A stretch of DNA of 64,000 bases, from the IMG/VR virus record IMGVR_UViG_3300045988_121909. The stretch is one strand, 5' to 3'. This document shows, in pieces, positions 4,237 to 31,790 of the stretch. The notes under the pieces were generated by a model. The model saw only the letters and a program-made list of their open reading frames with translations, made no database searches and had not been told where the DNA came from. The stretch is from a virus. The translations under genes were made by a program, and so were the position numbers. Each line of letters begins with the position of its first letter. Position 1 is the stretch's first letter.

Positions 4237-4310
4237 GGGTCAGTAGCTCAGTTGGTTAGAGCGTCCGGCTGTTAACCGGAAGGTCGTAAGTTCGAGTCTT
4301 TCATAAATCA
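4237..4310 (+). tRNA. tRNA-Asn(GTT)-like, probable pseudo-tRNA
   Basis: Canonical D-arm (tagctcagttggttagagc) and anticodon arm (tccgg ctGTTaa ccgga). The T-arm is present, but the 3' strand (ataaatc) cannot pair with the 5' acceptor (gggtcag). Confidence 0.4.
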
Positions 4311-4316
4311 AATTAC

Positions 4317-4391
4317 GGCGCCATTGTAGAAAGGTTAGTACACAAGGTTTTCATCCTTGAAGTCTGGGTTCGAGTCCCAGTGGCGTCACCA
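4317..4391 (+). tRNA. tRNA-Glu(TTC)
   Basis: Acceptor ggcgcca/tggcgtc; anticodon arm caagg ttTTCat ccttg; T-arm ctgggttcgagtcccag; CCA encoded. Confidence 0.8.
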
Positions 4392-4555
4392 AACGAAAGT
4401 AGCTTGCCTAATTAGACAAGGGTTCGTCTAACAAAGTAAACTGCTTACTGATAGTTTTTACTATCGACAAAGCGAACAGTAGTATAAGTATATTATTTAT
4501 TCATTTACGAGTAAGATTCATAACTGAGATTGTTATGACTGTTCGCCAATTATAT

Positions 4556-4630
4556 AGTCCGTTAGTTTAATGGTTAAAATGTCCGGCTGTCGACCGGATG
4601 ACGAGGGTTCGATTCCCTTACGGACTGCCA
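4556..4630 (+). tRNA. tRNA-Asp(GTC)
   Basis: Perfect 7-bp acceptor agtccgt/acggact; anticodon arm tccgg ctGTCga ccgga; T-loop ttcgatt; CCA encoded. Confidence 0.85.
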
Positions 4631-4635
4631 AATAT

Positions 4636-4711
4636 GCCTTGTTAGCTCAGTTGGTAGAGCACACGACTTTTAATCGTGGAGTCCAGAGTTCGAATCTCTG
4701 ACAAGGCACCA
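4636..4711 (+). tRNA. tRNA-Lys(TTT)
   Basis: Acceptor gccttgt/acaaggc; D-arm tagctcagttggtagagc; anticodon arm cacga ctTTTaa tcgtg; CCA. Confidence 0.85.
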
Positions 4712-4737
4712 AAAATTTATCTTAGATGTATTAAAAA

Positions 4738-5511
4738 TTGAAGTTAGAAACAAGAGAAAAGATAAGACAGAGTCTTAAAAATCATTACAGAGAGCATAGA
4801 AAAGAAAAACACTGCAAATTCTGTGGAAGAACAATCTCTACTGATAGAAGAAAATCAAAATACTGTAGTGATGAGTGCAGAATTAGAGATAATCAAGTCA
4901 TTTCACTGATAAAATATTTTGAATTTGACTCATCTGTGATTGGGACTACTGAAGTTTTTGATGAATGGGATAGAGTTAAACATACACTAGAAAAATTGTA
5001 CTGGAAAGAAGAAAAGACTTCAACAGAGATTTGCAAAATGTTTGGTTATCCAAATAGCAGTAATCTAACAAGTAAAATATTCAAATATCTCGAAATAAAA
5101 TCTAAAACTGCTCAAGAGTCAACTCATTTAAACTATAAAAATGGAATTTTAACTCCGCCTACAAATAACACGTATCATCAAGGGTGGCATACTACTTGGG
5201 ATAATAAGAGAGTATATCTAAGAAGTTCGTATGAATTTGAGTTCGCTAAGCGTTTAGATAGATTGCATACTCGTTACACAGTTGAAGAATTAAGAATTGA
5301 GTATTTTGACACAGTTAAAAATTATAAAAGAATAGCAATTCCTGATTTTTATATCTCTAAAGAAAATTTAATTGTTGAAGTTAAATCTAACTATACACTT
5401 AATATTCAAAATATGATTGATAAAGCTAGAGAGTATAGAGCGCAAGGATATAATTTTTTATTATTTTTAGAAAATCGTTATTTAACGCTTGAAGAATTAG
5501 AAAATATGTAG
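4738..5511 (+). CDS. homing-endonuclease-like protein with N-terminal zinc ribbon / NUMOD-like repeats and a C-terminal PD-(D/E)XK (Vsr/DUF559-like) nuclease domain
   Basis: CKFCG...CSDEC zinc motif and an ETREKIRQSLK NUMOD3-like repeat. C-terminal PDFYI...LIVEVK (D..E.K) motif. Embedded in the tRNA cluster. Apparent TTG start. Confidence 0.55.
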   Translation: MKLETREKIRQSLKNHYREHRKEKHCKFCGRTISTDRRKSKYCSDECRIRDNQVISLIKYFEFDSSVIGTTEVFDEWDRVKHTLEKLYWKEEKTSTEICKMFGYPNSSNLTSKIFKYLEIKSKTAQESTHLNYKNGILTPPTNNTYHQGWHTTWDNKRVYLRSSYEFEFAKRLDRLHTRYTVEELRIEYFDTVKNYKRIAIPDFYISKENLIVEVKSNYTLNIQNMIDKAREYRAQGYNFLLFLENRYLTLEELENM

Positions 5512-5584
5512 GCATAGTGTAATTGGTTAACACGCTTGTCTTCCAAACAAGCATTAGGGGTTCAAGTCCCCTTGCCTGCTCCAA
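5509..5584 (+). tRNA. tRNA-Gly(TCC)
   Basis: Acceptor gtaggca/tgcctgc; anticodon arm cttgt ctTCCaa acaag; T-arm aggggttcaagtcccct; CCA. The 5' end overlaps the stop codon of the preceding CDS. Confidence 0.75.
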
Positions 5585-5592
5585 AAAATATG

Positions 5593-5665
5593 CCAGTGTA
5601 GTTTAATGGTAAAACAGGTGTTTTGTAATCATCGGTTGGGAGTTCGATTCTCTCCACTGGCTCCA
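5593..5665 (+). tRNA. tRNA-Thr(TGT)
   Basis: Acceptor gccagtg/cactggc; D-stem gttt/aaac; anticodon loop ttTGTaa, with a U-U pair at 31-39; CCA. Confidence 0.7.
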
Positions 5666-5911
5666 AATAAATATAAGCGTTGAGAATTAAATACCTATGC
5701 TGCATATGAACGTGATAAACTCATATGTAGAACAACATAGATACCAGACTTTGTCTATTTGGTTTTGCTAATAAAACTCAAAGTCTAAAAAGATTCGAAA
5801 GAGGCTGATTTAATAAAATTAGAATTATCGCTCTTATCAAGCGATAGTTGCATAAACTAGTAATTGTGAAGATAACTTAGTCGATGCCATATCTTACGCT
5901 TATATTTTTAC

Positions 5912-5985
5912 GGGCTGATAGTTCAATGGGAGAACATACGGCTTGCATCCGTATAATGAGAGTTCAATTCTCTCTCAGTCCACCA
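5912..5985 (+). tRNA. tRNA-Ala(TGC)
   Basis: Acceptor gggctga/tcagtcc; anticodon arm tacgg ctTGCat ccgta; T-arm gagagttcaattctctc; CCA. Confidence 0.8.
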
Positions 5986-5989
5986 TTCA

Positions 5990-6073
5990 CGGAGGATAGT
6001 CTAACTGGTAAGACACCGAACTGTAACTTCGGCGCTTTATGGCTTGTAGGTTCAAGTCCTACTCCTCCGACCA
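5990..6073 (+). tRNA. tRNA-Tyr(GTA), type II (long variable arm)
   Basis: Acceptor cggagga/tcctccg; anticodon arm ccgaa ctGTAac ttcgg; long variable arm; T-arm gtaggttcaagtcctac; CCA. Confidence 0.8.
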
Positions 6074-6092
6074 AATTTAAGGAGATATTAAG

Positions 6093-6353
6093 ATGTTAGT
6101 AGAAGTTAAGCAAATAACAGAATATCTTGATTCTAATGTCAGTCATAGAGCTATTGTAGAGATAGAACGTGACGGCTTAGGCAGATTTAAGTTTATGTCA
6201 GGACGTTTTAAGAGAGTTTACACTAATCTTACTTTTCCTGAGCTTAATGCTTCAATCAATGTTGAATATATCTGTATGTCAGATGGCAAGTACAATATGT
6301 CTTTAACTGATTTTGAAGAATTTTATCTCTTGAATGCTCTTCAGAGACACTGA
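6093..6353 (+). CDS. hypothetical protein (86 aa)
   Basis: ORF with RBS (aaggagat) upstream. Confidence 0.5.
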   Translation: MLVEVKQITEYLDSNVSHRAIVEIERDGLGRFKFMSGRFKRVYTNLTFPELNASINVEYICMSDGKYNMSLTDFEEFYLLNALQRH

Positions 6354-6405
6354 TTTGACTTCTGAGAGCTTTTCATATACATCTTAATAAAATATGCGCC
6401 TGTGG

Positions 6406-6472
6406 TGGAATTGGCATACACGGTAGTCTTAGAAACTACTTTTTGCGGGTTCAAGTCCCGCTGGGCGTACCA
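6406..6472 (+). tRNA. tRNA with anticodon TAG (nominally Leu) but a short variable arm (type I)
   Basis: Perfect anticodon arm gtagt ctTAGaa actac; T-arm gcgggttcaagtcccgc; CCA. The acceptor has three G-U pairs. No long variable arm. Confidence 0.55.
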
Positions 6473-9731: not shown

Positions 9732-9807
9732 GGTGAGTATGGTGTAATGGCAGCACGACAGATTGTGACTCTGTAGGAACTGAGTTCAATTCTCATTATT
9801 CACCCCA
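9732..9807 (+). tRNA. tRNA-His(GTG)
   Basis: G-1 present; acceptor gtgagta/tattcac; anticodon arm acaga ttGTGac tctgt; CCA. Confidence 0.8.
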
Positions 9808-9813
9808 AATTAT

Positions 9814-9889
9814 GCTCGCTTAGTTCAGCTGGGAGAACAATTCCCTTACAAGGAAGAGGTCGTAGGTTCAAGTCCTACAGCGAGTACCA
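9814..9889 (+). tRNA. tRNA-Val(TAC)
   Basis: Acceptor gctcgct/agcgagt; D-stem gttc/gaac; anticodon loop ctTACaa; T-arm gtaggttcaagtcctac; CCA. Confidence 0.8.
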
Positions 9890-10330
9890 AACGCTACTAC
9901 CACTGTGTAGCTAGCGCCCACCAGACGACTTACTCAGTTGACTGGTTTTTAAAGGTCGATTTTGTCTAAGACCTTAGAATAGCAAGCATAGAATAGGATG
10001 CTGTAGGCACTAAGAGTTGTCTACGATATCAAGATAGAGTGGAAATCTCTCTTGTAGTCAGGTTTGAACTATAAGTAGTTTAAAGTAGAAGCGTTGACGA
10101 CAAATATAGCACGCTCCCTTGCTATTCTAAAATTTTATGAAACATTGAGCGAGAAAACTCGGTTTTTCAAAGTCAAGATGAACGCTCTTAGGCATTAAGT
10201 AGGGATGGAATAGCCCAAACTCAACGCCTGTGGATATCGTGTAAGACGTCCAACCCACATGAAACCATGTAGGCTAGATGCAGTGGTAGTTGAAGCAGGA
10301 AGCTCGGTAATTTATTACCGAGTAGTTCAC

Positions 10331-10406
10331 GTTTCGATAACTCATTTGGTAGAGTGCTGGTGTGAAGTACCAGAGGTGATAGGTTCGAGTCCTATTCGGG
10401 ACACCA
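10331..10406 (+). tRNA. tRNA-Phe(GAA)
   Basis: Anticodon arm ctggt gtGAAgt accag; T-arm ataggttcgagtcctat; CCA. Confidence 0.75.
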
Positions 10407-10411
10407 TTTAT

Positions 10412-10501
10412 GGAGAGTTGATAGAGTCCGGTTTATTATGATTGCCTTGAAAGCAATTGAGTGTAAAAGCTCCGTGAGTTCGAATCTCACACTCTCCTCC
10501 A
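10412..10501 (+). tRNA. tRNA-Ser(TGA), type II
   Basis: Acceptor ggagagt/actctcc; anticodon arm attgc ctTGAaa gcaat; long variable arm; T-arm gtgagttcgaatctcac; CCA. Confidence 0.8.
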
Positions 10502-10659
10502 TATCTAAAGAGGTTTTAAATGACAGAATATTTAAAAGCATTTCTTGCATTTATGCTAATGCTACTAATTACAGTTAGTGTAGTTTTATCCTTAACATTT
10601 ATAATAAAATTATTAGTAGTACTAGCTATAGTATTAATAATCATTGGCAGTATGAATAA

Positions 10660-10744
10660 GTGCTCGTGACGGAAGTGGCAGACGTAGCGGACTTAAAATC
10701 CGCTGAAGCAATTCGTGCAGGTTCAAGTCCTGTCGGGCGCACCA
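10660..10744 (+). tRNA. tRNA-Leu(TAA), type II
   Basis: Anticodon arm gcgga ctTAAaa tccgc; long variable arm; T-arm gcaggttcaagtcctgt; CCA. Confidence 0.75.
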
Positions 10745-11802: not shown

Positions 11803-12019
11803 GGAGATAAATATGGAACTCATAGCTACATTAGCTTTATTGTTAGTTATACTTATAATCGCGTTTGTCTTTAAATTTTGTTTAATACTTTTACTCATTG
11901 TAGCTCCTTTATACCTTTTATATAAAAATACTTTAAAGATGTAAGCAATTACATCTTTTTTTTTGTTTACATTTACTCTTGTGTATGTTATTATTAATTA
12001 TATAAAGGAGATAAATATT

Positions 12020-12739: not shown

Positions 12740-13604
12740 AGGTTACTGGAAGAAGAGAGTAAAAGACTACACGATTGATTTGCAGACTGTCAGAATATCA
12801 ACTAATGAACGTAGCATTGAAAATATTGTTAAATACAAGAATAGAAATACTGCAATGAAGAGCCTAAAGCAAGCTCTTAAGGCAAAAGGTGTAACAAGAC
12901 CTGTATTACCAGAGATAATGCGCGAGGTTACGCAAGCTCTCAACGACGTAAATGATGAAAAATATGAGAGCATCATACATTTTTTTGAAGATATGATGTT
13001 TATTATAAATATCCAGCAGATATGCACTAGACTTAAAAAAGAAGCATATGAGTTTAGCGTGAATGAAAAAGGTGAGAATATCTACCAAAAGAGACGTAAG
13101 CAGACACAAGCTACGCTTTATAGATTCTTTAGAAACTTATTCCATAGACAATATGAACGTCGTCTTATAGAACTAATTCAACCTCAGCTTGAAGAGTTAC
13201 TTCGTAAAGAAGTAAGCTTTTATATGTATAACAATGTATTTGTAATAGATGTCCCATACAGTGAGCAATGTATTAAGTTAAATGATGATATTGAAATTTA
13301 CTTTAACTTCGATGAATTACTTGATACTGAAAATAATTGTGTTGAAGTAACATTTAGTCACATTAAATTTGGTAAAGAAGTAGTATACGCAAGAAGTATG
13401 GGCAAAGAAATAGAAAAGATTCTGCATGCAGCAGAAGAGTATAAACCGGCGAATGCTGGTCTTTATGTTCATAGATGTGTTGAAGAAGCAATCTATAATA
13501 ATTTTACACCTACTAAAGAGGAAATAGCTATAGCTGAAAGAAACGGCAAAGTACTTAGAGAAGTACTGAGAGTATCAAAGGAGTTGAAGCAATGTGCAGT
13601 GTAA
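12732..13604 (+). CDS. hypothetical protein, GEN-I-x(2)-KR paralog family member 2
   Basis: Contains the ...NEKGENIYQKRRKQ... motif. Confidence 0.55.
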   Translation: MRKGYWKKRVKDYTIDLQTVRISTNERSIENIVKYKNRNTAMKSLKQALKAKGVTRPVLPEIMREVTQALNDVNDEKYESIIHFFEDMMFIINIQQICTRLKKEAYEFSVNEKGENIYQKRRKQTQATLYRFFRNLFHRQYERRLIELIQPQLEELLRKEVSFYMYNNVFVIDVPYSEQCIKLNDDIEIYFNFDELLDTENNCVEVTFSHIKFGKEVVYARSMGKEIEKILHAAEEYKPANAGLYVHRCVEEAIYNNFTPTKEEIAIAERNGKVLREVLRVSKELKQCAV

Positions 13605-14233
13605 TAGTTGGTAACATCGTCATTAGTGTTTTAATAATTTTACTGTATTTGGTGCAATATGCAATCGTACAAAGCTGTGTTGATATATCTGATACTGACG
13701 ATTATTTAATGTACGCATTTTCAGTATTCTTGATTAAAGTAGCAATTATACTAAGCATTGCTTTGAGTTTTGGTATATACGACGATTTAAGCGACAAAGA
13801 TGGACTACTACTGAAATATATCCAATTTATTATAATCTCAGTGTATGTGTTATCGTTTGTTGTTTTCCATATATACGTATATAGATTTAAGAAAGATTGC
13901 AAACTATGCCAAAAAATTAAAGCATATTTTGATATTGATTTAAAAGAATTAGTTAATGATTTTGTTAATCTTGATAGATGCAATAATAAAGTTGCAAGAG
14001 AGGAATTAAAACGCTTGCGTAAGCTATTTAAAATGTCAAAGTATTTTGACACTGACGAAGCTAAACAAGAATTTTTAAATGAAATAGTAGAAAAAGAAAT
14101 TGATAAGTTCATTCATCAAATAGACGAACGAAGCGCTGAAATACATAAAGAGAATGAAGAGAAACATAATCAAACTCTTATTAAAGATAAAGAGTTACTA
14201 AAGCAATTTAAAAAGATATACAATGAAGATTAA
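13592..14233 (+). CDS. membrane protein (213 aa)
   Basis: Three N-terminal hydrophobic helices and a charged C-terminus. Confidence 0.5.
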   Translation: MCSVIVGNIVISVLIILLYLVQYAIVQSCVDISDTDDYLMYAFSVFLIKVAIILSIALSFGIYDDLSDKDGLLLKYIQFIIISVYVLSFVVFHIYVYRFKKDCKLCQKIKAYFDIDLKELVNDFVNLDRCNNKVAREELKRLRKLFKMSKYFDTDEAKQEFLNEIVEKEIDKFIHQIDERSAEIHKENEEKHNQTLIKDKELLKQFKKIYNED

Positions 14234-14235
14234 AA

Positions 14236-14262
14236 TCAAGCATTACGCTTGATTTTTTTTTA
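14236..14262 (+). terminator. rho-independent terminator
   Basis: Hairpin atcaagc-atta-cgcttgat followed by a T9 run. Confidence 0.65.
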
Positions 14263-14263: not shown

Positions 14264-14293
14264 GTTTACATCATTCTGAATAAGTGATATAAT
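14264..14293 (+). promoter_or_regulatory. promoter GTTTACA-N17-TATAAT upstream of rtcB
   Basis: gtttacatcattctgaataagtgatataat. Confidence 0.55.
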
Positions 14294-14326
14294 AAATATA
14301 TCAACTACTTAAGGAGAAGTTCATTT

Positions 14327-15520
14327 ATGTTCGAATTAAACGGAAAGTATGGTACAGCAAAAATATTTACAGACAACTGCGAAGTAGAAGCGCAGACACA
14401 GATAGTTAATCTTCTAAATCAGCCTTTTGCTAAAGATAGTAATGCTCGCTTTATGCCCGATGTTCACGCAGGTAAAGGTTGTACTGTGGGTACTACTATG
14501 AAAATCGTAGATAGAGCTTGTCCTAATCTTGTAGGTGTAGACATTGGCTGCGGTGTAGAAGTTTATAAGTTTAAGGCAGATGAAATAGATTTCGCTAAGC
14601 TAGATGAAATGCTACAAGCAAATACAAAAGTACCTTATGGTTTTAGTAAGAGAAATACTGCTCATAGATTTGCAAATGACGCAAGACTAAAAGAGTTAAA
14701 ATGTTTTGATACTATTGACTATAATGGCGCTATGCTATCTCTAGGTTCTTTAGGCGGTGGTAATCACTTTATCGAAATAAATGTTGATGAAGAGGGTTAT
14801 AACTACTTAGTTGTACACTCGGGTTCAAGACATCTTGGCATAGAGATTTGTAAGTACTACCAAGATATCGCTGAAAAGAATGAAAACAATGTAGATGTAA
14901 ATGCAGTTATTGAAGATTTAAAGAGAGCTGATAGACAGAGCGAAATACAAAACGAAATAAAGAGAATAAAAGAAGAATATCCAATCATACCTAAAGATTT
15001 AAGATGTGTTATGGGTACAGACTTAGAAGATTATCTACATGATATGAATATAGCTACTGAGTACGCTTCTTTATCAAGACAAGCTATAGCTGATGAGATT
15101 ATCTCATATATGAATTGGGATATACTAGAGCATTTCTGCTCTATTCATAATTACATTGACGTAGAAAATAAGATTATTCGTAAAGGTGCAATCTCTGCTC
15201 AAAAGGGTGAGAGAATAATCATCCCTATCTCTATGAAAGATGGTTCAATTATTGGTATCGGTAAAGGTAATTCTGACTGGAACTGCTCTGCTCCTCACGG
15301 CGCAGGTAGAGTTCTTTCTAGAAGTGCTGCTAAAGCTACTCTAACTGTAGAAGAGTTTGAAAAATCTATGGAAGGTATTTATACATCTTGCGTTGGTAGA
15401 AGTACTCTTGATGAATCTCCTATGGCATATAAGCCTCTTGATGAGATTAAGGCTGCAATCGCTGATACAGTAGATATTGAGCGTATAATTAAGCCAATTT
15501 ATAATTTTAAAGCTAATTAA
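14327..15520 (+). CDS. rtcB: RtcB-family RNA 3'-phosphate/5'-OH ligase
   Basis: Diagnostic RtcB motifs MPDVHAGKG, GGGNHFIEI, HSGSRHLG and APHGAGR. Length 397 aa; RBS aaggagaag. Confidence 0.85.
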   Translation: MFELNGKYGTAKIFTDNCEVEAQTQIVNLLNQPFAKDSNARFMPDVHAGKGCTVGTTMKIVDRACPNLVGVDIGCGVEVYKFKADEIDFAKLDEMLQANTKVPYGFSKRNTAHRFANDARLKELKCFDTIDYNGAMLSLGSLGGGNHFIEINVDEEGYNYLVVHSGSRHLGIEICKYYQDIAEKNENNVDVNAVIEDLKRADRQSEIQNEIKRIKEEYPIIPKDLRCVMGTDLEDYLHDMNIATEYASLSRQAIADEIISYMNWDILEHFCSIHNYIDVENKIIRKGAISAQKGERIIIPISMKDGSIIGIGKGNSDWNCSAPHGAGRVLSRSAAKATLTVEEFEKSMEGIYTSCVGRSTLDESPMAYKPLDEIKAAIADTVDIERIIKPIYNFKAN

Positions 15521-15533
15521 GGTGAGGTAAAGT

Positions 15534-16049
15534 ATGACAGATGAAATAAAAGATTTACTAATAAATTGTAAAGCGGATTGCGAAAGAGCAGATGATAGAG
15601 CACAAAACGCTATATCAAGTCTTGACGCGTTTGAAACTGAGTATGCAGACTTGCTAAGAGAAAGAACTAGACTTGAGCTAGATGCTGTAAACGCAGTACG
15701 TTTTCGCGATAAGCTGTATGATGATGTCGAGTTTCAGTTATTCAAAAGAATAAAAGCACGTAATGCAGACATACAGAAGTTTATAACAGCTCAGTGGGGA
15801 TGTGATATAAAAGCATTGATTGAGTTATTCAGTGCGATGCATGAAGCTGAATTATTTGGCTTTATGCGAATTGGTAGTACTTTTGGTGGTATTGAAGTTT
15901 GCTCAAACGACAACTTTAATATACGTTGCATTGAAGGAATAGACAGAATTAATTACGTAATCGACACGAAAAATGCACAAATAGCACTTTATACAGAAAA
16001 AGACACGAAAAAGTTAATAGATATTGATTTTATTGATTTAAGATATTAA
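15534..16049 (+). CDS. hypothetical protein (171 aa)
   Basis: ORF with RBS (aaggtgagg). Confidence 0.5.
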   Translation: MTDEIKDLLINCKADCERADDRAQNAISSLDAFETEYADLLRERTRLELDAVNAVRFRDKLYDDVEFQLFKRIKARNADIQKFITAQWGCDIKALIELFSAMHEAELFGFMRIGSTFGGIEVCSNDNFNIRCIEGIDRINYVIDTKNAQIALYTEKDTKKLIDIDFIDLRY

Positions 16050-16061
16050 GAAGGTAAGCAA

Positions 16062-16379
16062 ATGAATAACGACATCAAATTCTTCTATAAGTTTATGCAA
16101 GACGTAGCATTTACTAAAGCCTTTGACATTTATGCGTTTGAATGTTTTATCGATATTCTTGATAGAGTTAAACTAGATGAATTAAACATTGGTGATACTC
16201 TATCTGAACGTCTTGTTGAATGTTCTTGCTATGCTTACTCTGTAAAGTATTATGCATTCGATGAAGAAAATATTCTATGTCAGATTAGAGACGATATATC
16301 TAGTAGTACATTGAGCATTTTCATAGATAAAGATAGAAAGATTTTTCATATATCTTTAGACTCAATTTTATTACAATAA
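16062..16379 (+). CDS. hypothetical protein (105 aa)
   Basis: ORF with RBS (gaaggtaag). Confidence 0.5.
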   Translation: MNNDIKFFYKFMQDVAFTKAFDIYAFECFIDILDRVKLDELNIGDTLSERLVECSCYAYSVKYYAFDEENILCQIRDDISSSTLSIFIDKDRKIFHISLDSILLQ

Positions 16380-16455
16380 GGCGGCATAGTCCAGTGGCTC
16401 AAGACGGCAGACTGCAAATCTGCTTATCTCAGTTCGATTCTGAGTGCCGTCTCCA
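16380..16455 (+). tRNA. tRNA-Cys(GCA)
   Basis: Acceptor ggcggca/tgccgtc; anticodon arm gcaga ctGCAaa tctgc; T-arm ctcagttcgattctgag; CCA. Confidence 0.8.
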
Positions 16456-16459
16456 TTGT

Positions 16460-16536
16460 AGGGGTATGTTCTAATGGCTTATGATGTCGGTCTCCAAAAC
16501 CGTACGATGTGGGTTCGAGTCCTACTACTCCTGCCA
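16460..16536 (+). tRNA. tRNA-Trp(CCA)
   Basis: Acceptor aggggta/tactcct; anticodon loop ctCCAaa; T-arm gtgggttcgagtcctac; CCA. Confidence 0.7.
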
Positions 16537-16554
16537 ATTTTGAAAGGAAGTAAA

Positions 16555-17931: not shown

Positions 17932-18078
17932 TTATTTAAATTTATCGAAAGTGATTAATTCGATGAATTCCCAGCGCTTAATCAATAGGAAGTCAGCTAG
18001 TGTAATCAACTTCGCTGCACTGAGGACAGGCAGAAACCTCTAAGCGCTAACTTATCAAGGTAAAGGATAATAAATTTA

Positions 18079-18984
18079 TTGACAAATAGCATTGCAAATA
18101 CGAAAACATTTAAATGTGCGTGTGGAAAAGAATTTATAAACGGTCAGCAGTTTAATGGTCATAAGTCTAGATGCAAGATACACCATTTGAATAAATACGG
18201 TAATCTTGATATTTATGATAAAGTGCAATCTGCATTATCCAATGGTATGTCAATAAGTAAAAAACAAAAAGCAAAAGAAAAGCGTCAAACACGCATGCAA
18301 ACATGGGTTGATGAAAAGCATCAATGCGAAAAATGCGGTAAAATAATGGCAGTTTTCTATGGCTCAGGAAGATTCTGCTCGCGTAGTTGCGCTAATAGTA
18401 AACAACATTCTGAAGAAACTAAAACTAAAATAAGTAAAGCTCTAAAACTAGACGTAGAAAAGAAGTTTTGTAAGCAATGCGGCAAAGAATTATGTTCTAG
18501 AAATATAAGTGGTTACTGTAAAGTTTGTCTTAGAACTTGTGATGAATTTCATGAGCAAAGAAAACTAAGCGCTAGAAAAGTTTACGAAAATTCTGTTAAA
18601 AACGGTACATTTAAAGGATGGCAACTAAGAAATGAAACACCGTTTTCTGAAAAATTTTTTATTAACATACTCAATCAGCATAAAATACCGTATACCCATA
18701 ATAAACCCGTAAAGCAATCAAATAATCGCTATTGTTATTTTCTTGATTTTTACATAGAGTTACCTGACATGAAACTCGATTTAGAAATTGATGGCAAGCA
18801 ACACAAATACCCTGAACGAAAAGAAGCAGATAAGCGTAGAACAGCTGAATTAGAAAATTTAGGTTATACAATATATAGAATTGAATGGAATGAAGTAAGA
18901 ACAGAAAAAGGAAAATTACAATTAAATCAGAAAGTAGAAGATTTTTTAAATTTTCTATATAAGAATGGTTTTAAAAAGATATAG
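18079..18984 (+). CDS. homing-endonuclease-like protein (zinc-ribbon repeats plus C-terminal PD-(D/E)XK nuclease), paralog of 21813-22703
   Basis: N-terminal half about 70% identical to the ORF at 21813 (CxCGKEF..QQFNGHKS..GSGRFCSRSCAN). C-terminal DFYIE...LEIDG..H nuclease motif. Apparent TTG start. Confidence 0.6.
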   Translation: MTNSIANTKTFKCACGKEFINGQQFNGHKSRCKIHHLNKYGNLDIYDKVQSALSNGMSISKKQKAKEKRQTRMQTWVDEKHQCEKCGKIMAVFYGSGRFCSRSCANSKQHSEETKTKISKALKLDVEKKFCKQCGKELCSRNISGYCKVCLRTCDEFHEQRKLSARKVYENSVKNGTFKGWQLRNETPFSEKFFINILNQHKIPYTHNKPVKQSNNRYCYFLDFYIELPDMKLDLEIDGKQHKYPERKEADKRRTAELENLGYTIYRIEWNEVRTEKGKLQLNQKVEDFLNFLYKNGFKKI

Positions 18985-19059
18985 GCTATTAGCTCAGGTG
19001 GTTAGAGCATTCGTCTGATACGCGAAAGGTCTTAAGTTCGAATCTTAAATAGCCTACCA
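18983..19059 (+). tRNA. tRNA-Ile(GAT)
   Basis: Acceptor aggctat/atagcct; D-arm tagctcaggtggttagagc; anticodon loop ctGATac; T-arm cttaagttcgaatcttaa; CCA. Confidence 0.8.
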
Positions 19060-19071
19060 ATAAGAGAATTT

Positions 19072-19144
19072 CACTGATTACAGTTTAATTGGGTAAACGT
19101 CTGCAATAGCAGAAGATTGCGGGTTCAAGTCCCGTCTTCAGTGG
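19072..19144 (+). tRNA. irregular tRNA-like element (possible pseudo-tRNA)
   Basis: Recognisable D-arm (gtttaattgggtaaac), T-arm (gcgggttcaagtcccgt) and a 6/7 acceptor pairing. No foldable 5-bp/7-nt anticodon arm and no encoded CCA. Confidence 0.3.
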
Positions 19145-19498
19145 GTGCACAGATTCTCTTTATGGCTACTTAGAGCTCTGAGTAGCCGTCTACGGTCACA
19201 CAGTACAGCCTGCACGCGGCGTGACTGCTACATAACTAATGTACTAAAGAATGGACATTATGAAAAGGGTAAGTCAGTGAGTAGCCATGTCGGCGCAATA
19301 GCTGAGATAATCTTACTTGGTAGTGAAGTTAGTTTTAATCTAACGTATAACTTTTCATAATAATGAGTAGCTCAATTTTCTACCGCCAGTAATGAGGAAA
19401 TACGAGAGTGAAAGTCAAACTTATGTAGCCGATATTCGTATTAGTCGGTAAAGCTCTAAAGCTAGCTAGACAGAGCCTACATAAGTCAGTCCATATAT

Positions 19499-19574
19499 GC
19501 TGGTATAGCTCAATTGGTAGAGTACTTGTTTTGTAATCAAGGTGTTGGGGGTTCAAATCCCTCTATCAGCTCCA
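19499..19574 (+). tRNA. tRNA-Thr(TGT), second copy with a different body
   Basis: Acceptor gctggta/tatcagc; anticodon loop ttTGTaa with U-U at 31-39; T-arm gggggttcaaatccctc; CCA. Confidence 0.65.
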
Positions 19575-21161: not shown

Positions 21162-21239
21162 GCAGAAGTAGTTCATATTGGTTAGAACGTTACCTTGCCA
21201 AGGTAAAGGCTGCGAGTTCAATTCTCGTCTTCTGCTCCA
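21162..21239 (+). tRNA. tRNA-Gly(GCC)
   Basis: Acceptor gcagaag/cttctgc; anticodon arm ttacc ttGCCaa ggtaa; CCA. Confidence 0.8.
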
Positions 21240-21242
21240 TAC

Positions 21243-21319
21243 GGGCTCATAGCTCAGCTGGATAGAGCAATAACCTTCTAAGTTATTTGTCCAAGGTTCG
21301 ACTCCTTGTGAGCTCGCCA
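21243..21319 (+). tRNA. tRNA-Arg(TCT)
   Basis: Anticodon arm ataac ctTCTaa gttat; T-arm caaggttcgactccttg; CCA. Confidence 0.8.
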
Positions 21320-21323
21320 ATAT

Positions 21324-21408
21324 AGCGGGGTGATGAAATTGGTAGACATACAGGAATTTGACTCCTGCGCCTTAAAGCTTGTGGGTTCAAGTCCCACCCC
21401 CGCTGCCA
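21324..21408 (+). tRNA. type II tRNA (long variable arm) with apparent anticodon TTG
   Basis: Acceptor agcgggg/ccccgct; anticodon arm cagga atTTGac tcctg; 14-nt variable arm; T-arm gtgggttcaagtcccac; CCA. The isotype is ambiguous, because the Gln anticodon sits on a Leu/Ser-type body. Confidence 0.5.
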
Positions 21409-21415
21409 GATACAT

Positions 21416-21495
21416 TGCGGAGTGGAGAAGTGGTTATCTCGTCAGGCCCATAACCTGAAGGTTTATCGTCGGTTCGAATCCGACCTCCGCAACCA
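21416..21495 (+). tRNA. tRNA(CAT) number 1 (Met, or Ile2 if lysidinylated)
   Basis: Acceptor tgcggag/ctccgca; anticodon arm tcagg ccCATaa cctga; 9-nt variable loop; T-arm gtcggttcgaatccgac; CCA. Confidence 0.65.
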
Positions 21496-21504
21496 ATACT
21501 TTTT

Positions 21505-21581
21505 GCGTCACTAGCTCAATTGGATAGAGTGCCTAACTACGAATTAGTAGGATGAGGGTTCAAGTCCTTCGTGACGCGCCA
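21505..21581 (+). tRNA. tRNA-Arg(ACG)
   Basis: Acceptor gcgtcac/gtgacgc; anticodon loop ctACGaa; T-arm gagggttcaagtccttc; CCA. Confidence 0.75.
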
Positions 21582-21596
21582 GATACGGGAAGATAC

Positions 21597-21676
21597 TCAA
21601 GTTTGGTGAAGAGGGCAGTTTGCTACACTGCTAGGATGTAACAGTCGCGTGAGTTCGAGTCTCACTCTTCCCGCCA
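21597..21676 (+). tRNA. tRNA-Ser(GCT), type II
   Basis: Acceptor gggaaga/tcttccc; anticodon arm gcagt ttGCTac actgc; long variable arm; T-arm gtgagttcgagtctcac; CCA. Confidence 0.75.
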
Positions 21677-21679
21677 TTT

Positions 21680-21756
21680 GTACCATTAGCTCAGTAGGTT
21701 AGAGCAGGCGGCTCATAACCGCAAGGTCCTTTGTTCAAATCAAAGATGGTGCACCA
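21680..21756 (+). tRNA. tRNA(CAT) number 2
   Basis: Acceptor gtaccat/atggtgc; anticodon loop ctCATaa; T-arm ctttgttcaaatcaaag; CCA. Confidence 0.65.
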
Positions 21757-24899: not shown

Positions 24900-25769
24900 A
24901 TGTTAAAACGTTTCAAGTTTATGAGAAAACTAAAGCGCACTGACAAGCTAATCAGAGAAAATGCAGAAGAGTTTGCACGTATACTAAGTAAAAAGAATCA
25001 TTATTTAACTTTTGATGATTCTGTACTTGAGTTTGAATATAAAGGCAGTACACGAATCAGTCGTGCGACTTATGCGAAAGAGTTTTATTTGACGATTGAT
25101 AAGTCTACTGACGAGATTTACTTTACGCAGAATGATGTTACAGATGAAAGTAAAATCAGTATTATATACGGAGTTGTATTCAATCATACGTTTGCAAAAA
25201 GTTTAGAGCAGAAAGTATGTGATTTAAGCAATTATATTCTTGACGTCTGGACTGTAGAGCTATTGAAGTATATTGATGAAACTCGCATTTGTGTATATGA
25301 CAATAGACTTGAATATCACGAAAAACCGTTATTCTATGATTTTGTTCGCAAGCTCAATGAAATGGAAAGCTTAAACAGAAAAAGAATTGATGCTATTGTT
25401 GAGCGTTTAAAGAGAATAACAGCGAATGACACGAGATTCTATTTAGACACTACTGAGCATAAATGCTCATTTACTGAATACGTAGTCAGATTTAGTTCAG
25501 GACTAACTGATATTATCATTCCGTGCTATTTGACTTATTTCGCAAATAGTGATGAGTTTATGTTTACTCCGTTTGACTGTACAGATGGCGAAAATGTTAG
25601 TATATTCTATAATGTTTCATTTGGAGCAAACGCTAGCGTATTCAATAGAAACTACGAAATTATAGAAGATTGTTTAAAGCATATAGTGCCAGAAACTCAC
25701 GCTGCACTGCAAAACAAACTCGGTCAAGAGTTTTACATAGAAGATGTATATATTTCAAAGTGGAGATAA
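24900..25769 (+). CDS. hypothetical protein (289 aa)
   Basis: Long ORF after a hairpin terminator at 24845-24875. Confidence 0.5.
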   Translation: MLKRFKFMRKLKRTDKLIRENAEEFARILSKKNHYLTFDDSVLEFEYKGSTRISRATYAKEFYLTIDKSTDEIYFTQNDVTDESKISIIYGVVFNHTFAKSLEQKVCDLSNYILDVWTVELLKYIDETRICVYDNRLEYHEKPLFYDFVRKLNEMESLNRKRIDAIVERLKRITANDTRFYLDTTEHKCSFTEYVVRFSSGLTDIIIPCYLTYFANSDEFMFTPFDCTDGENVSIFYNVSFGANASVFNRNYEIIEDCLKHIVPETHAALQNKLGQEFYIEDVYISKWR

Positions 25770-25779
25770 GGAGATTAAG

Positions 25780-26718
25780 ATGTTAAAATACCCATCACTT
25801 GAAAATCATTATAATATTACAAGCTCAAGAAAACTCATGGCTGTTCTTGACGAAGAGTTTTATGCTACTGAGAAGATTCACGGTAGTAATATGTCGATAG
25901 AGTTTACTAAAGACTCTACTAGATATTTTAGTAGAAATAGAGAAGTAACGCTTAATGATAAAGCTCTTGGTAGTTATCTTGCAACTACTAACAACCTTAA
26001 ATATATTGAGAATATTGCAAAATCAATTCTTGAAGGTTCAGTAAATCTAAGTAAAAAAGAAAATGATATAACTAAAGTAATCATCTTTGGTGAGTTATAT
26101 GGCAGTGGTATTCAGAATATGGAATACGCTGAAAATAAAGCAGGCATAAAACAATTCAGAGTATTTGATGTTTTTGTATTTGAAGATAACAGAGCTTATA
26201 CTCTAAGCGCTGAAGAGCTACTTCACATTTTTGGTCAGTTAACCGTACCATTCTTTACAGAAGTTAAACCTCTTAGAGAGTGGCTTACAACTGAATTGCC
26301 TGAGATATCAACACTTGGTGGTCCTATTGAGGGTCTAGTATATAAACCTTTTGATGGGCAAATACTAGCTTTTGATAATGGCTCAGTGTGCAATTACCTA
26401 GGAGTAAAACATAAGACAGAGCAGTTTGCTGAGATTAAGAGTAGAAAGAAAGAAGCACCTGTACAAACTGACGGTGAGATTAACTTTAAAGATAATATTG
26501 AGAGATATTTCACGATGCAGAGGCTAGATAATCTACTCTCTAAAGGAGATATCGAGTTATCAGTAAGAAATCTTGGCACTATTATTCCTGCATACTTAGA
26601 AGACGTAAAGACTGATTACATTAAAGATAACCCTGATTCATATTTTAATCAGAGAATTCTTAATAAAGCAATGCCAAGTCTAGTAGTAAAGCTTGTAAAA
26701 GAAAAACTTGCTCAATAG
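25780..26718 (+). CDS. RNA ligase 2 (T4 Rnl2-like)
   Basis: N-terminus MLKYPSLENHYNI...EKIHGSNMS matches the T4 Rnl2 KYSSLENHYN...EKIHGTNFS region, including the adenylylation lysine (KxHG). Confidence 0.8.
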   Translation: MLKYPSLENHYNITSSRKLMAVLDEEFYATEKIHGSNMSIEFTKDSTRYFSRNREVTLNDKALGSYLATTNNLKYIENIAKSILEGSVNLSKKENDITKVIIFGELYGSGIQNMEYAENKAGIKQFRVFDVFVFEDNRAYTLSAEELLHIFGQLTVPFFTEVKPLREWLTTELPEISTLGGPIEGLVYKPFDGQILAFDNGSVCNYLGVKHKTEQFAEIKSRKKEAPVQTDGEINFKDNIERYFTMQRLDNLLSKGDIELSVRNLGTIIPAYLEDVKTDYIKDNPDSYFNQRILNKAMPSLVVKLVKEKLAQ

Positions 26719-27522: not shown

Positions 27523-27897
27523 ATGATGAACATTACGACTCTAGAGAGATTATGCAGAGAATATCCTGATGTAAGAGTAAAGTACGTTGACACGACTAAA
27601 CTAGATGAGAATTACTACAGAGGGTTTGGCAGTTGGAGAGGTGATTATCATCAGCCTGCTATTTTCTTTAAAGATTATATTAAAGACAAGTATATGACTC
27701 TTGCCGACTTGCTAGTAGTTATAGATAAGCTGACAGACGGCTCTAAGTATGAAGGTTACAAAGGTGGTTTATTCTCATTTGAAAACGCTGACTGGATTCA
27801 TTTTGAATACGATGAAAGTTGTTTTAGCGATTGCCCATTGTTTGAGTTCTTGCACCCTGATGACATTACGCAAGAGATTGAAGAAATGTGCAAGTAG
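27523..27897 (+). CDS. hypothetical protein (124 aa)
   Basis: ORF with RBS (aaggagaaa). Confidence 0.5.
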   Translation: MMNITTLERLCREYPDVRVKYVDTTKLDENYYRGFGSWRGDYHQPAIFFKDYIKDKYMTLADLLVVIDKLTDGSKYEGYKGGLFSFENADWIHFEYDESCFSDCPLFEFLHPDDITQEIEEMCK

Positions 27898-27901
27898 CAG
27901 C

Positions 27902-28588
27902 ATGAGTATTTATCTATACGGAGATTTACATAGAACAATTGATTTAGAGCCATTAGTAGAATTATCAAAAGAAAAAAGAGTTACAGATGAAGATGTTTTA
28001 ATCATTCTTGGCGATTTTGGCGGTATATGGTATAATGAAAAAGATGACAGTGAATTCCTTAATCGCTTGGCTGATTCTGTTTCTTATAAGCATATTCTAT
28101 TCATAGATGGCAATCACGAAAATTTTAATAGATTAAATAAACTACCTATCGCTGAGATGTATGGAAACCCTACTCACGAAGTGTTAAAAGATAAAATCTA
28201 TCATTTAATGAGAGGGTACAAGTACACTATTGAAAATAAGACATTCTTTGCAATGGGCGGTGCTGATTCTATTGATAAGCATCGAAGAATTGCTAATGTT
28301 GACTGGTGGTCTGAAGAATTACCTAGTAACGAAGAGTATGAAAGAGCGTTTAAGACTTTAGATGAGAATAACTTTACTTTTGATTATATTATTTCTCATT
28401 GTACGTCTTCTTATATATTAAATGATATTTCAGCTTATATGCACGATAAGAATAAACTAACAAACTTCTTTGACAGTATTCTTTGTGATTTAAGCTACAA
28501 AAGATGGTATTTTGCTCATTATCATTTGAATAGAATTAGCCCGATGTATAACGCAGAGTGCTTGTATTTGAGATTAGTCGAGATTTAA
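27902..28588 (+). CDS. lambda-phosphatase-type metallophosphoesterase
   Basis: Motifs YGDLHR, LGDFGG (GDxxDRG-like) and DGNHENF. Starts at the ATG at 27902 (MSIYLYGDLH). Confidence 0.65.
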   Translation: MSIYLYGDLHRTIDLEPLVELSKEKRVTDEDVLIILGDFGGIWYNEKDDSEFLNRLADSVSYKHILFIDGNHENFNRLNKLPIAEMYGNPTHEVLKDKIYHLMRGYKYTIENKTFFAMGGADSIDKHRRIANVDWWSEELPSNEEYERAFKTLDENNFTFDYIISHCTSSYILNDISAYMHDKNKLTNFFDSILCDLSYKRWYFAHYHLNRISPMYNAECLYLRLVEI

Positions 28589-30737: not shown

Positions 30738-31790
30738 ATGCTTAAAGAATTAGAGATTTTTAAGAAAGAACTACAACCTTATACTGATAGAGCATATTTC
30801 GTAGGCGGTTGCGTAAGAGACGAATTCTTAAGCAGAGCTTGTAAAGACATTGATATTGAAGTATTTGATGTTGAGCAAGAAACTCTTGAAAAGATTTTGA
30901 ATATCTGCGCAGAAAAGCTAGGTTTCAAAGAAGTAGAGCTAGTAGGTAAGCAGTATGGCATCTACAAACTTGGTGAGCTTGATATTTCTATTCCTAGAAT
31001 TGAAACTAAGACTGGTGATAAGCATACTGATTTTGAGTGTACTCTTTGCCCTACTCTTCCTGTAGTAGACGCTCAGAGAAGAAGAGACTTTACTGTAAAT
31101 GCTATTTATAAAAACATCTTTGACGGTAGCATCGTTGATAGTTTTAATGGAATCTCTGATATGAGTAAAAGAGTTATAAAACATATTGATGATAAGACTT
31201 TCATTGAAGACGCATTGAGAGTTTTTAGAGCAGCAAGATTTTCATCAGTGCTAGATTTTGAAATAAGCGAAGAAACAAAGGCACTATGTAAAAAGATTAA
31301 TCTATCAGCTCTGCCTACAGAGAGAATAGTTCAGGAAACTAGCGCAGCTTTGATTAAGTCAGATACTCCAAGCGTATATTTTAAAACGCTACAAGAAATT
31401 ATCTCTGATTTTGACACTATCTTTGGTGATATTGATTTTTCTGAAATAGACAGTGTAGTAAAAGACATAAACATTATGTACGCATTTTTGTACAAAGACG
31501 CTGACGTGATTCCCGATATGATTAAGTCTACTAAGCAGAGAAAACTGATTGAGCTATCAAGAATTACAGACGAAGTACAGCTTTTCAAAGTATTTCTAAA
31601 AGACAGAGAAGTTACAAAGCAGTACACAATTCTTAGAGGCATAGATTATACAGAAAAATTTAGCAAAATAAAAGCGCCTACAGGCTCAGAGATTATGAAA
31701 AAGTATAGTATTGATAAGCCATCAGCAGAAGTTGGCATACTGCTTGAAAAAGAATACAAAGAACTATTGAAGGAGAAAGAAAGTGAATAA
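30738..31790 (+). CDS. tRNA nucleotidyltransferase (CCA-adding enzyme) head/neck domains
   Basis: Pol-beta-like motif YFVGGCVRDEFL...DIDIEV (GGxVRD and DxD), typical of class II CCA/poly(A) polymerases. Confidence 0.7.
   Translation: MLKELEIFKKELQPYTDRAYFVGGCVRDEFLSRACKDIDIEVFDVEQETLEKILNICAEKLGFKEVELVGKQYGIYKLGELDISIPRIETKTGDKHTDFECTLCPTLPVVDAQRRRDFTVNAIYKNIFDGSIVDSFNGISDMSKRVIKHIDDKTFIEDALRVFRAARFSSVLDFEISEETKALCKKINLSALPTERIVQETSAALIKSDTPSVYFKTLQEIISDFDTIFGDIDFSEIDSVVKDINIMYAFLYKDADVIPDMIKSTKQRKLIELSRITDEVQLFKVFLKDREVTKQYTILRGIDYTEKFSKIKAPTGSEIMKKYSIDKPSAEVGILLEKEYKELLKEKESE

Follow-up and report, generated by a model that had tools for sequence, protein, structure and literature searches.

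A phage-encoded RtcB-family RNA ligase with an intact active site, its linkage to tRNA genes and a proposed role in tRNA-repair counter-defence

Introduction

What does a phage gain from carrying an RtcB-type RNA ligase among its tRNA genes? The question is raised by the open reading frame (ORF) at positions 14327 to 15520 of IMG/VR virus record IMGVR_UViG_3300045988_121909, a 64,000-nucleotide (nt) stretch of viral DNA that was analysed as a whole and is called the window below. An original prediction had read this ORF as a phage-encoded RtcB next to tRNA clusters, and had proposed that it counters host abortive-infection systems that cleave tRNA. Such tRNA-cleaving effectors, which include PrrC and RloC, the retron-, PARIS-, Septu- and OLD-associated nucleases, the Schlafens and Cas12a3, are by now regarded as a major arm of bacterial immunity. 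To our knowledge, the escape routes shown for phages so far are repair by Pnkp and Rnl1 of T4 and the supply of replacement tRNAs, and we know of no ligase other than RtcB that directly reseals the 2',3'-cyclic-phosphate/5'-OH ends left by metal-independent nucleases. We find that the window carries an intact rtcB accompanied by 25 tRNA genes on the same strand, and that repair of cleaved tRNAs is the best explanation for the presence of the gene.

Results

The ORF encodes an intact RtcB-family ligase

14327..15520, + strand: rtcB, RtcB-family 3'-phosphate/5'-OH RNA ligase (profiles, alignments and AlphaFold2 model)

The uninterrupted ORF runs from an ATG start to a TAA stop and encodes 397 amino acids (aa). 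The four RtcB signature motifs on which the original prediction was built are all in place, namely MPDVHAGKG (aa 43-51), GGGNHF (143-148), HSGSRHLG (164-171) and HGAGR (324-328), and two more diagnostic motifs, DIGCG (72-76) and HNY (274-276), are also present. The profile search that had been proposed as a check returned the Pfam RtcB family PF01139 at 205.6 bits (E=2.1e-60; curated cut-off 27), with residues 25-395 spanning profile positions 1-425 of 426, and PHROG 1075, 'tRNA splicing ligase', at 440.4 bits (E=1.8e-131). Scores of this strength rule out a chance match. In a BLASTP comparison the protein is 33% identical to E. coli RtcB from MG1655 (E=3e-51). The E. coli-type equivalog model of NCBIfam, PRK09588, was matched at 124.4 bits against a cut-off of 407, and TIGR03073 'release_rtcB', the RtcB2-PrfH type, was matched partially at 98.9 bits, its cut-off being 271.8; we therefore class the protein within the RtcB family and as neither equivalog.

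An AlphaFold2 model, calculated from an alignment of 30 sequences, has a mean predicted local distance difference test score of 91.1 and a predicted template modelling (TM) score of 0.89. When the model was compared with the PDB using Foldseek, the top 16 matches were all RtcB structures (E 1.7e-24 to 3.1e-16, TMq 0.58-0.73), from human, P. horikoshii, T. thermophilus and zebrafish, and the first match outside the RtcB group, the 17th, had an E-value of only 0.13. Alignment and model agree on a helical insertion of ~25 residues at about aa 185-222 that is absent from E. coli RtcB. The ORF is thus a genuine and intact RtcB RNA ligase gene, and its product fits best as a stand-alone, bacterial-type RtcB of the short (~400 aa) form, from a Firmicutes/phage subfamily.

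The catalytic residues are retained under purifying selection

Loss of the metal-binding His or Cys residues had been set beforehand as grounds for abandoning the assignment. None is lost: D72, C75, H147, H164 and H274 are invariant in an alignment of 12 sequences comprising the window RtcB, E. coli RtcB, the RtcB of phage Evoli and nine database homologs. Also invariant in all 12 are N146, R168, K286, H324, R328 and R332. The eleven positions D72, C75, N146, H147, H164, R168, H274, K286, H324, R328 and R332 correspond to D75, C78, N167, H168, H185, R189, H281, K299, H337, R341 and R345 of the E. coli protein.

In the P. horikoshii enzyme (Pho, PH1602), Mn1 is bound by C98, H234 and H329, equivalent to C78, H185 and H281 of E. 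coli RtcB (Eco), and Mn2 by D95, C98 and H203, equivalent to Eco D75, C78 and H168; Pho H404 (Eco H337) is the covalent GMP acceptor, and N202, N330, E206 and K480 contact GTP (PMC9745838). The Mn1 ligands are kept in the window protein, where C75, H164 and H274 align to Eco C78, H185 and H281 and are invariant in the 12 sequences as well as in the 30 used for modelling. The Mn2 ligands D72, C75 and H147 are likewise invariant and align to both E. coli RtcB and PH1602. The nucleophile H324, within APHGAGRVLSR, is invariant and aligns with Pho H404 and Eco H337. Among the GTP contacts, N146 and E150 in GGGNHFIE align to GSGNHFLE of PH1602, while N275 (of HNY) and the C-terminal K395 are invariant, E. 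coli included; by its position K395 is probably the equivalent of Pho K480. A direct HMMER alignment to P. horikoshii RtcB covers D95/C98, N202/H203/E206, H234 and H404, and the profile version of this match has E=5e-23. The HMMER local alignments to PDB sequences skip the segment with Pho His329, and H274 is equated with this residue on the strength of the E. coli alignment, the published correspondence between the E. coli and P. horikoshii residues (PMC9745838) and the fold match.

Nei-Gojobori dN/dS values against five relatives lie between 0.08 and 0.19, even at dS >1.5, which shows that rtcB is under purifying selection with its active site intact. The product is very probably an active RtcB ligase, judging from its homology to characterized enzymes.

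rtcB lies among tRNA genes and probably heads a transcript that includes two of them

The tRNA genes and the elements around rtcB are as follows.

4238..6472, + strand: tRNA block 1, Asn, Glu, Asp, Lys, Gly(UCC), Thr, Ala, Tyr and Leu(UAG), with ORFs interspersed (ARAGORN, Rfam)
9733..10744, + strand: tRNA block 2, His, Val, Phe, Ser(UGA) and Leu(UAA) (ARAGORN, Rfam)
14232..14256, + strand: intrinsic-terminator-like hairpin AAAATCAAGC-ATTAC-GCTTGATTTT followed by a T-run (scan and reading of the sequence)
14265..14293, + strand: sigma-70/sigma-A-type promoter, -35 TTTACA, 17-nt spacer, extended -10 TGATATAAT (consensus match)
14311..14316, + strand: ribosome-binding site AAGGAG, 10 nt ahead of the rtcB ATG (reading of the sequence)
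15534..16049, + strand: 171-aa ORFan, 13 nt after rtcB (no Pfam or PHROG family)
16062..16379, + strand: 105-aa ORF of no known family, ending one base before tRNA-Cys (no Pfam or PHROG family)
16380..16536, + strand: tRNA-Cys(GCA) and tRNA-Trp(CCA), both with encoded CCA (ARAGORN, Rfam)
18983..19574, + strand: tRNA-Ile and tRNA-Thr, either side of a degenerate element (19073-19143) and an ORF-free conserved stretch
21162..21756, + strand: tRNA block 4, Gly(GCC), Arg(UCU), Gln, Met, Arg(ACG), Ser(GCU) and Met (ARAGORN, Rfam)

ARAGORN identifies 25 tRNAs between 4238 and 21756, all on the + strand, which together serve 19 amino acids (all but Pro). Rfam returns the same 25 from end to end and a borderline match to the degenerate element at 19073-19143, making 26; the figure of about 27 given in the original prediction was therefore slightly too high. 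The 3' CCA is genomically encoded in 24 of the 26 matches, the exceptions being tRNA-Asn (4237-4310) and the degenerate element.

The ORF upstream of rtcB stops at 14233, and the terminator-like hairpin at 14232-14256 closes the upstream unit. The promoter that follows agrees with the consensus at 11 of 12 positions and is joint-best within 10.5-19.7 kb. Promoters were called as consensus matches and their total count is not above shuffle expectation, so the call at 14265 draws on position and quality only. Downstream of rtcB the order is the 171-aa ORF, the 105-aa ORF, tRNA-Cys, tRNA-Trp, a further ORF, an isochorismatase-family gene and then a second promoter motif at 17903-17931. No + strand terminator was predicted by the scan from rtcB up to 19579, which lies downstream of tRNA-Cys and tRNA-Trp, and rtcB therefore probably heads a transcript that includes these two tRNAs.

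The 171-aa ORF is probably co-transcribed with rtcB; its product falls in only three database clusters, all of them at least 94% identical. The 171- and 105-aa ORFs were considered as archease-like cofactors of RtcB and rejected. Neither belongs to a Pfam or PHROG family, both are missing from the 73%-identical relatives L006 and L008, and the 171-aa ORF is confined to this phage group.

The promoter motif at 14265 is one of a recurrent set. TTTACA with a 17-nt spacer occurs on the + strand at 10787, 11966, 14265, 17903 and 19612, the site at 17903-17931 being equal in score to that of rtcB and the remaining three being near-matches (10/12). The -10 element is TATAAT at 14265 and 17903 and TATTAT at 10787, 11966 and 19612, and a TG extension is present at every site except 19612. 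Four of the five sites are intergenic, two of these directly after terminator-like hairpins; the site at 11966 overlaps with the TTG that is called as the start of ORF 11963-12739. This pattern points to what may be a set of units across the tRNA region that depend on host RNA polymerase.

Two 290-aa ORFs of no known family, at 12732-13604 and 16474-17346 (both + strand), flank the rtcB unit. They are weak paralogs of one another (28% identity over 141 aa, E=7e-8) with a common 'KGENI..KR..Q' segment. The called start of the second overlaps tRNA-Trp, and translation probably begins instead at the Met near 16555. The isochorismatase-family (nicotinamidase-like) gene at 17359-17895 (+ strand) lies inside the probable rtcB transcription unit, and genes for isochorismatase, NAPRTase and NAD synthase recur by rtcB in distant viral lineages (L014, L028, L031 and L044), which suggests that RNA-repair and NAD+-salvage counter-defence genes are held in one island.

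Two further features belong to the tRNA region. A DUF559/NUMOD3 homing-endonuclease-like ORF at 18079-18984 (+ strand) lies immediately 5' of tRNA-Ile. Its site is occupied by tRNA-Pro(UGG) in the 97%-identical relative L002 (13187-13263) and in the IMG/VR loci L012 and L013, so the window lacks tRNA-Pro because this ORF has taken its place. The promoter and leader upstream of the ORF, at about 17903-18075, are common to the window and L002, and the arrangement resembles T4 SegB, a homing endonuclease within a tRNA cluster. The second feature is the ORF-free stretch at 19060-19498 (+ strand) between tRNA-Ile and tRNA-Thr, which is about 98% identical in L002. It contains the tRNA-like element 19073-19143 (Rfam tRNA, 29.6 bits), in which a 4-nt loop replaces the anticodon loop and CCA is lacking, and hairpins such as GGCTACTTAGAGCTCTGAGTAGCC. 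Apart from the tRNA-like match, no Rfam family matches the stretch, which could be a non-coding RNA, a tRNA pseudogene or a decoy.

The linkage of rtcB to tRNA genes recurs in viral loci

The proximity of rtcB to tRNA genes extends beyond the window. The array of 27 tRNAs in L006 begins 395 nt past the rtcB stop, L002 has 27 tRNAs in 21 kb, and L008 and L009 have five and seven tRNAs near rtcB, respectively. Close relatives at 73-97% identity thus keep rtcB by 5-27 tRNAs despite different backbones, with the exception of L004, a 73% relative that has no tRNA within 10 kb of rtcB. L004 does have a PolyA_pol+HD gene and a Metallophos gene at most 9 kb from rtcB.

We extended the comparison to 37 IMG/VR loci that encode RtcBs 41-96% identical to that of the window. 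At least two tRNAs, nearly all on the same strand, lie within 10 kb of rtcB in 28 of these 37 loci, compared with only 5 of 46 taken from bacterial genome assemblies, with redundancy among the viral loci and unequal flanks (10 kb viral, 8 kb bacterial). At least six distinct arrangements are represented among the 28 viral loci. Four distant viral lineages also carry RNA_ligase genes (3 ORFs), Thg1, RlaP and metallophosphoesterases no more than 10 kb from rtcB. The adjacency of rtcB and tRNA genes therefore recurs in viral and not in bacterial loci, which strengthens the counter-defence reading.

One of the five bacterial loci, L064 (JAFZRZ010000071.1), is on a 280,209-bp contig labelled as a Lachnospiraceae metagenome-assembled genome (MAG). 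It encodes an RtcB homolog of 52% identity with 30 tRNA genes within 15.6 kb, and is probably a jumbo phage or megaplasmid mis-binned into the MAG.

The window derives from an undescribed phage lineage

All substantial ORFs of the window are on one strand, the GC content is about 33%, and many ORFs belong to no family. Megablast found no match of the window among 50,697 phage records, and its gyrase-like protein reaches no more than about 31% identity to any catalogued phage. For these reasons the phage could not be placed taxonomically, and it represents an undescribed lineage. Relatives exist in metagenomes: a 97%-identical RtcB is encoded on a 189.9-kb contig with the same gene order as the window, and two viral genomes in IMG/VR, of 173.7 and 191.7 kb, encode RtcBs that are 96% and 94% identical. 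The source is probably an uncultured gut-type phage of ~175-190 kb (relatives 174-192 kb). RtcB relatives at 73-77% identity are found on contigs of 92-179 kb, and a holin and an endolysin of the GH25 + CW_binding_2 type are encoded at two of these loci, L008 and L009. The tier below, at about 56% identity, includes Ruminococcus, Oscillospiraceae, Acutalibacteraceae and Clostridium genomes.

That rtcB is encoded by the phage is supported by its relatives in viral catalogues, its PHROG matches and the one-strand, ORFan-rich architecture of its surroundings. Based on the taxonomy of the homologs and the CW_binding_2 endolysin of the relatives, the host is probably a member of the gut or rumen Clostridia (Oscillospirales).

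Comparison of L009 896-2953 with window 14327-16379 places a recombination junction inside the L009 rtcB. Up to about codon 300 the L009 gene has 93-100% nucleotide identity to L006 and L008 but only 53-88% to the window, whereas over codons about 321-397 and in the two downstream ORFs its identity to the window is 96-98%. rtcB therefore marks the boundary of a module that has been exchanged between phage backbones.

Other RNA-repair genes in the window

Three other genes bear on RNA repair, the first two of which lie 10-15 kb downstream of rtcB and do not adjoin it.

25744..26718, + strand: Rnl2-type ATP-dependent RNA ligase (RNA_ligase 75.7 bits, T4_Rnl2_C 31.1 bits, KIHGSN, phrog_548 157.7 bits)
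30738..31790, + strand: class II (PolyA_pol head) tRNA nucleotidyltransferase (GGCVRD...DIDIE; PolyA_pol 70.9 bits; phrog_2244 174.7 bits)
27749..28588, + strand: calcineurin-like metallophosphoesterase (generic Metallophos match; no NCBIfam match)

The Rnl2 that the original prediction placed in the window is borne out by the RNA_ligase and T4_Rnl2_C matches and the KIHGSN motif. The enzyme is divergent, with TIGR02307 scoring 78 bits against a cut-off of 197. The CCA-adding enzyme of that prediction stands as a tRNA nucleotidyltransferase but not in its specificity: models for CCA addition and repair match residues 19-233 only, the head and neck, and below every equivalog cut-off. The protein is a candidate tRNA 3'-end (CCA) repair enzyme, for which CCA, CC, A or poly(A) specificity is possible. 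Since 24 of the 26 tRNA matches encode their CCA, it is not needed for tRNA maturation, which fits a role in 3'-end repair. The metallophosphoesterase is a weak candidate, and a speculative one, for healing ends with a 2',3'-cyclic phosphate or a 3'-phosphate. A second Metallophos ORF, at 2311-3324, was rejected as an RNA end-healing enzyme as it is SbcD/Mre11-like.

Family scans covered the window's 65 + strand ORFs of 90 aa or more and found no Pnkp, RtcA, RtcR, archease, PrfH or Hen1, and no kinase, RlaP or Thg1 was found in the window. The AAA_28 protein at 6574-7401, considered as a candidate polynucleotide kinase, matches P-loop kinases only generically and a 'thymidylate kinase' PHROG weakly. 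Thus neither the adjacent RtcA cyclase and RtcR regulator of the bacterial rtcBA-rtcR operon nor the archease gene of an RtcB-archease system accompanies this rtcB.

The window also encodes the DNA replication and repair proteins gyrase, NAD-dependent ligase, RecA and an SbcD-like protein. Two TnpB/Cas12f1-like genes (OrfB_IS605 + TNB domain) are found in the phage replication region, among the ORFs at 33154-63725; one of them is at 58288-59454 (+ strand), and the other, the stronger match of the two, has E=7.7e-27.

Discussion

A proposed role in tRNA repair

By homology, the window enzyme would guanylylate itself on H324 with GTP and Mn2+, giving RtcB-(His324)-GMP, open a 2',3'-cyclic phosphate to a 3'-phosphate and transfer the GMP to form RNA(3')pp(5')G, upon which attack by the 5'-OH would restore the phosphodiester, following the RtcB pathway summarised in PMC9745838. 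During infection the phage would transcribe rtcB from a strong host-type promoter, probably together with tRNA-Cys and tRNA-Trp, and the ligase would reseal host or phage tRNAs nicked by metal-independent anticodon nucleases and RNA toxins (PrrC/RloC, HEPN, colicin-type). It may form the first arm of a four-part package for the protection of translation, dealing with 2',3'-cyclic-phosphate/5'-OH breaks, alongside the Rnl2-type ligase for the 3'-OH/5'-phosphate nicks of metal-dependent tRNases, the replacement set of 25 tRNAs for 19 amino acids, and the tRNA nucleotidyltransferase for repair of 3' ends.

This division of labour revises the list of adversaries in the original prediction. Nucleases of the PrrC, RloC and colicin type fit RtcB. 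VapC would not, as metal-dependent PIN (VapC) or Toprim tRNases leave 3'-OH/5'-phosphate ends, which are substrates of Rnl2 and not of RtcB. Toprim tRNases such as OLD leave 5'-phosphate/3'-OH ends, and their single nicks are resealed by T4 Rnl1 or Rnl2 without healing (PMC12445682).

We infer activity, tRNA substrate and purpose from homology and gene neighbourhood, and give tRNA-repair counter-defence by RtcB a probability of roughly 0.6. The proposal made originally thus holds as the best explanation, with the recurrent viral adjacency of rtcB and tRNAs and the nearby repair genes behind it, and it stays an interpretation. Nor is the idea new, since counter-defence by phage RtcB has already been published: phage tRNAs are supplemented by RtcB and Rnl1/Rnl2 ligases in any combination per phage, and phosphoesterases, kinases, RlaP, a CCA-adding enzyme and Thg1 accompany the ligases to reverse host attack on tRNA (Iyer et al. 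2021, PMC7824862).

Several points weigh against tRNA repair as the function. RtcB joins any RNA with suitable ends, and specificity for tRNA is read from the neighbourhood only. Phage accessory genes and tRNAs generally tend to cluster in one variable region, and the comparison of loci carries the redundancy and unequal flanks given above. rtcB is found without nearby tRNAs in L004, and lies away from tRNAs in the closest annotated phages, the Bacillus Herelleviridae. A phage with a near-complete tRNA set might need no repair. The Rnl2 arm may be limited to ready-to-seal nicks, because no Pnkp-type enzyme was found in the window, and some nucleases defeat repair altogether, for example through amputation of the anticodon arm by OLD (PMC12445682).

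A more specific form of the tRNA-repair proposal is tentative at this stage. Instead of a generic repair enzyme, RtcB in this lineage could be a co-transcribed one dedicated to guarding the near-complete tRNA set that the phage itself encodes and, combined with the Rnl2-type ligase, could confer resistance to both tRNase chemistries. More speculatively still, the tRNA-like RNA at 19073-19143 could act with the RtcB system, for example as a decoy for anticodon nucleases.

Alternative functions

Among the alternatives, general RNA repair survives best, and we consider it unlikely. RtcB would then reseal rRNA or mRNA cut by endoribonuclease toxins of the host or of competitors, such as MazF-type nucleases, colicin E3-type nucleases acting on 16S rRNA, or HEPN mRNases. 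Its chemistry is independent of the substrate given the right ends (PMC9745838), cellular RtcB acts in this way on ribosomes, the bacterial RtcB2-PrfH module repairs damaged ribosomes (PMC9304027, PMC9223846), and the window protein partially matches the RtcB2-PrfH model TIGR03073. The score of that match, 98.9 bits, is far under the cut-off of 271.8, however, the scanned ORFs include no PrfH or other RF-like gene, and what recurs around phage rtcB is same-strand tRNAs and tRNA-specific enzymes (Thg1, tRNA nucleotidyltransferase).

That RtcB serves the maturation of phage RNAs, by joining split or intron-containing tRNA halves or by circularising or assembling a phage non-coding RNA, is very improbable. 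RtcB is the tRNA-splicing ligase of archaea and animals, and the gene sits among tRNA genes not far from a degenerate tRNA-like element and the ORF-free stretch 19060-19498. Yet ARAGORN with introns allowed gives the same 25 uninterrupted tRNAs, by which split or intron-containing tRNAs in need of a splicing ligase were rejected; the unusually long tRNA-Gln and tRNA-Met merely have extended variable loops. No splicing endonuclease was detected in the ORF scans of the window, and relatives keep rtcB while their tRNA complement varies from 0 to 27.

We give equally little credence to a DNA-end transaction, with RtcB capping or joining the 3'-phosphate ends of DNA in the course of phage replication or repair. 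In vitro, RtcB is able to join 5'-OH strands of DNA (PMC8051266), and genes for DNA replication and repair abound in the window, but rtcB is in the tRNA region, with the replication block beginning >13 kb downstream, and in other phages the genes that recur beside it are those for RNA repair and tRNAs. That the gene was recently acquired from a host (a 'moron') and has no specific role in infection, or that it is decaying, would fit the Clostridia chromosomal and MAG homologs, which at 54-56% are as close as any phage homolog outside the phage's own group, and the mosaic region with its recombination junction inside the L009 rtcB, but is hard to believe of a gene with dN/dS of 0.08-0.19 even at dS >1.5, all catalytic residues, its own promoter and ribosome-binding site, and retention at 73-97% identity across phage groups with different backbones.

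Comparison with known RtcB and tRNA-repair systems

RtcB is widespread in phages. By tblastn, 683 of 50,697 phage records contain a homolog, which is near full length in 625. They come from phages of Mycobacterium (221 records), Bacillus, Listeria, Brevibacterium, Caulobacter and Enterococcus, from haloviruses and from jumbo phages of Erwinia and Pseudomonas, and many of the homologs already bear the annotation 'tRNA splicing ligase' or 'RtcB-like RNA ligase'. We found no experimental test of any phage RtcB in the literature searched. In LC785692.1 (Bacillus phage CM1) and KJ081346.1 (BCP8-2) rtcB is split in two pieces over ~2 kb with inserted ORFs, and one further homolog (P0009) is enlarged to 638 aa. 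These split and enlarged genes are consistent with inteins or introns; NCBIfam holds 'intein-containing RtcB' models.

The phages of PHROG 1075 (Herelleviridae and others), exemplified by Bacillus phage Evoli gp19, vB_BsuM-Goe3 gp147 and Listeria and Enterococcus myophages, encode RtcBs of the same family, about 395-401 aa long and 51-53% identical to the window protein over full length, likewise in large lytic phages of Firmicutes. Their rtcB lies among small early hypothetical genes with no tRNA array near, whereas in the window and its close relatives the gene lies within or abuts arrays of 5-27 tRNAs.

E. coli RtcB, encoded in the RtcR-regulated rtcBA operon, has the same short architecture (408 aa compared with 397 aa), conserves the Mn1 and Mn2 ligands, the His337 nucleophile and the flanking Arg, and presumably shares the GTP/Mn2+ chemistry. 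Unlike it, the window gene is phage-borne, has a constitutive-looking promoter and comes without RtcA cyclase or RtcR. The archaeal and eukaryal enzymes (P. horikoshii PH1602 and human RTCB) share the fold (TM up to 0.73) and the active-site residues; the window protein is 20-22% identical to them and about 85-110 residues shorter. Human RTCB works with archease, whereas the ORF scans of the window revealed neither archease nor any other subunit of the tRNA ligase complex, and the role of the window RtcB is probably repair and not splicing as in archaea and eukaryotes. The RtcB2-PrfH module similarly employs an RtcB-family ligase against a ribotoxin, but differs in having PrfH as a partner where the window rtcB has tRNAs for neighbours, and in its model TIGR03073, for which the window protein falls below the cut-off.

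T4 Pnkp and Rnl1 follow the same logic against PrrC, the phage resealing the anticodon-loop nick so that translation continues. The enzymes and their chemistry are unrelated to RtcB: T4 heals the ends with a kinase/phosphatase and then seals them with an ATP-dependent ligase, while RtcB joins a 2',3'-cyclic phosphate or 3'-phosphate to a 5'-OH directly with GTP and no healing. The closest parallel is with the RNA-repair islands of jumbo phages (PMC7824862), which have the same gene combination and the same proposed logic. The window genome differs in lying just below the 200-kb threshold and in its probable Clostridia host, which is not covered in that study, and the RlaP and Thg1 of those islands were not found in the window, though they occur near rtcB in related viral lineages.

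Significance

The current understanding of phage RtcB is unchanged by this locus, which gives an already published hypothesis a well-documented case from an undescribed lineage. What the comparison does show is that the linkage of RtcB and tRNAs recurs in phages of gut Clostridia. If the guardian role is true, it would account for the joint occurrence of RtcB and tRNA arrays in many of these phages. With an intact enzyme, its own promoter, a probable transcript shared with tRNAs and a complementary second ligase, the locus is a clean candidate for a functional test, and a counter-defence role, if demonstrated, would make this the first phage in which an anti-defence function of RtcB is established by experiment.

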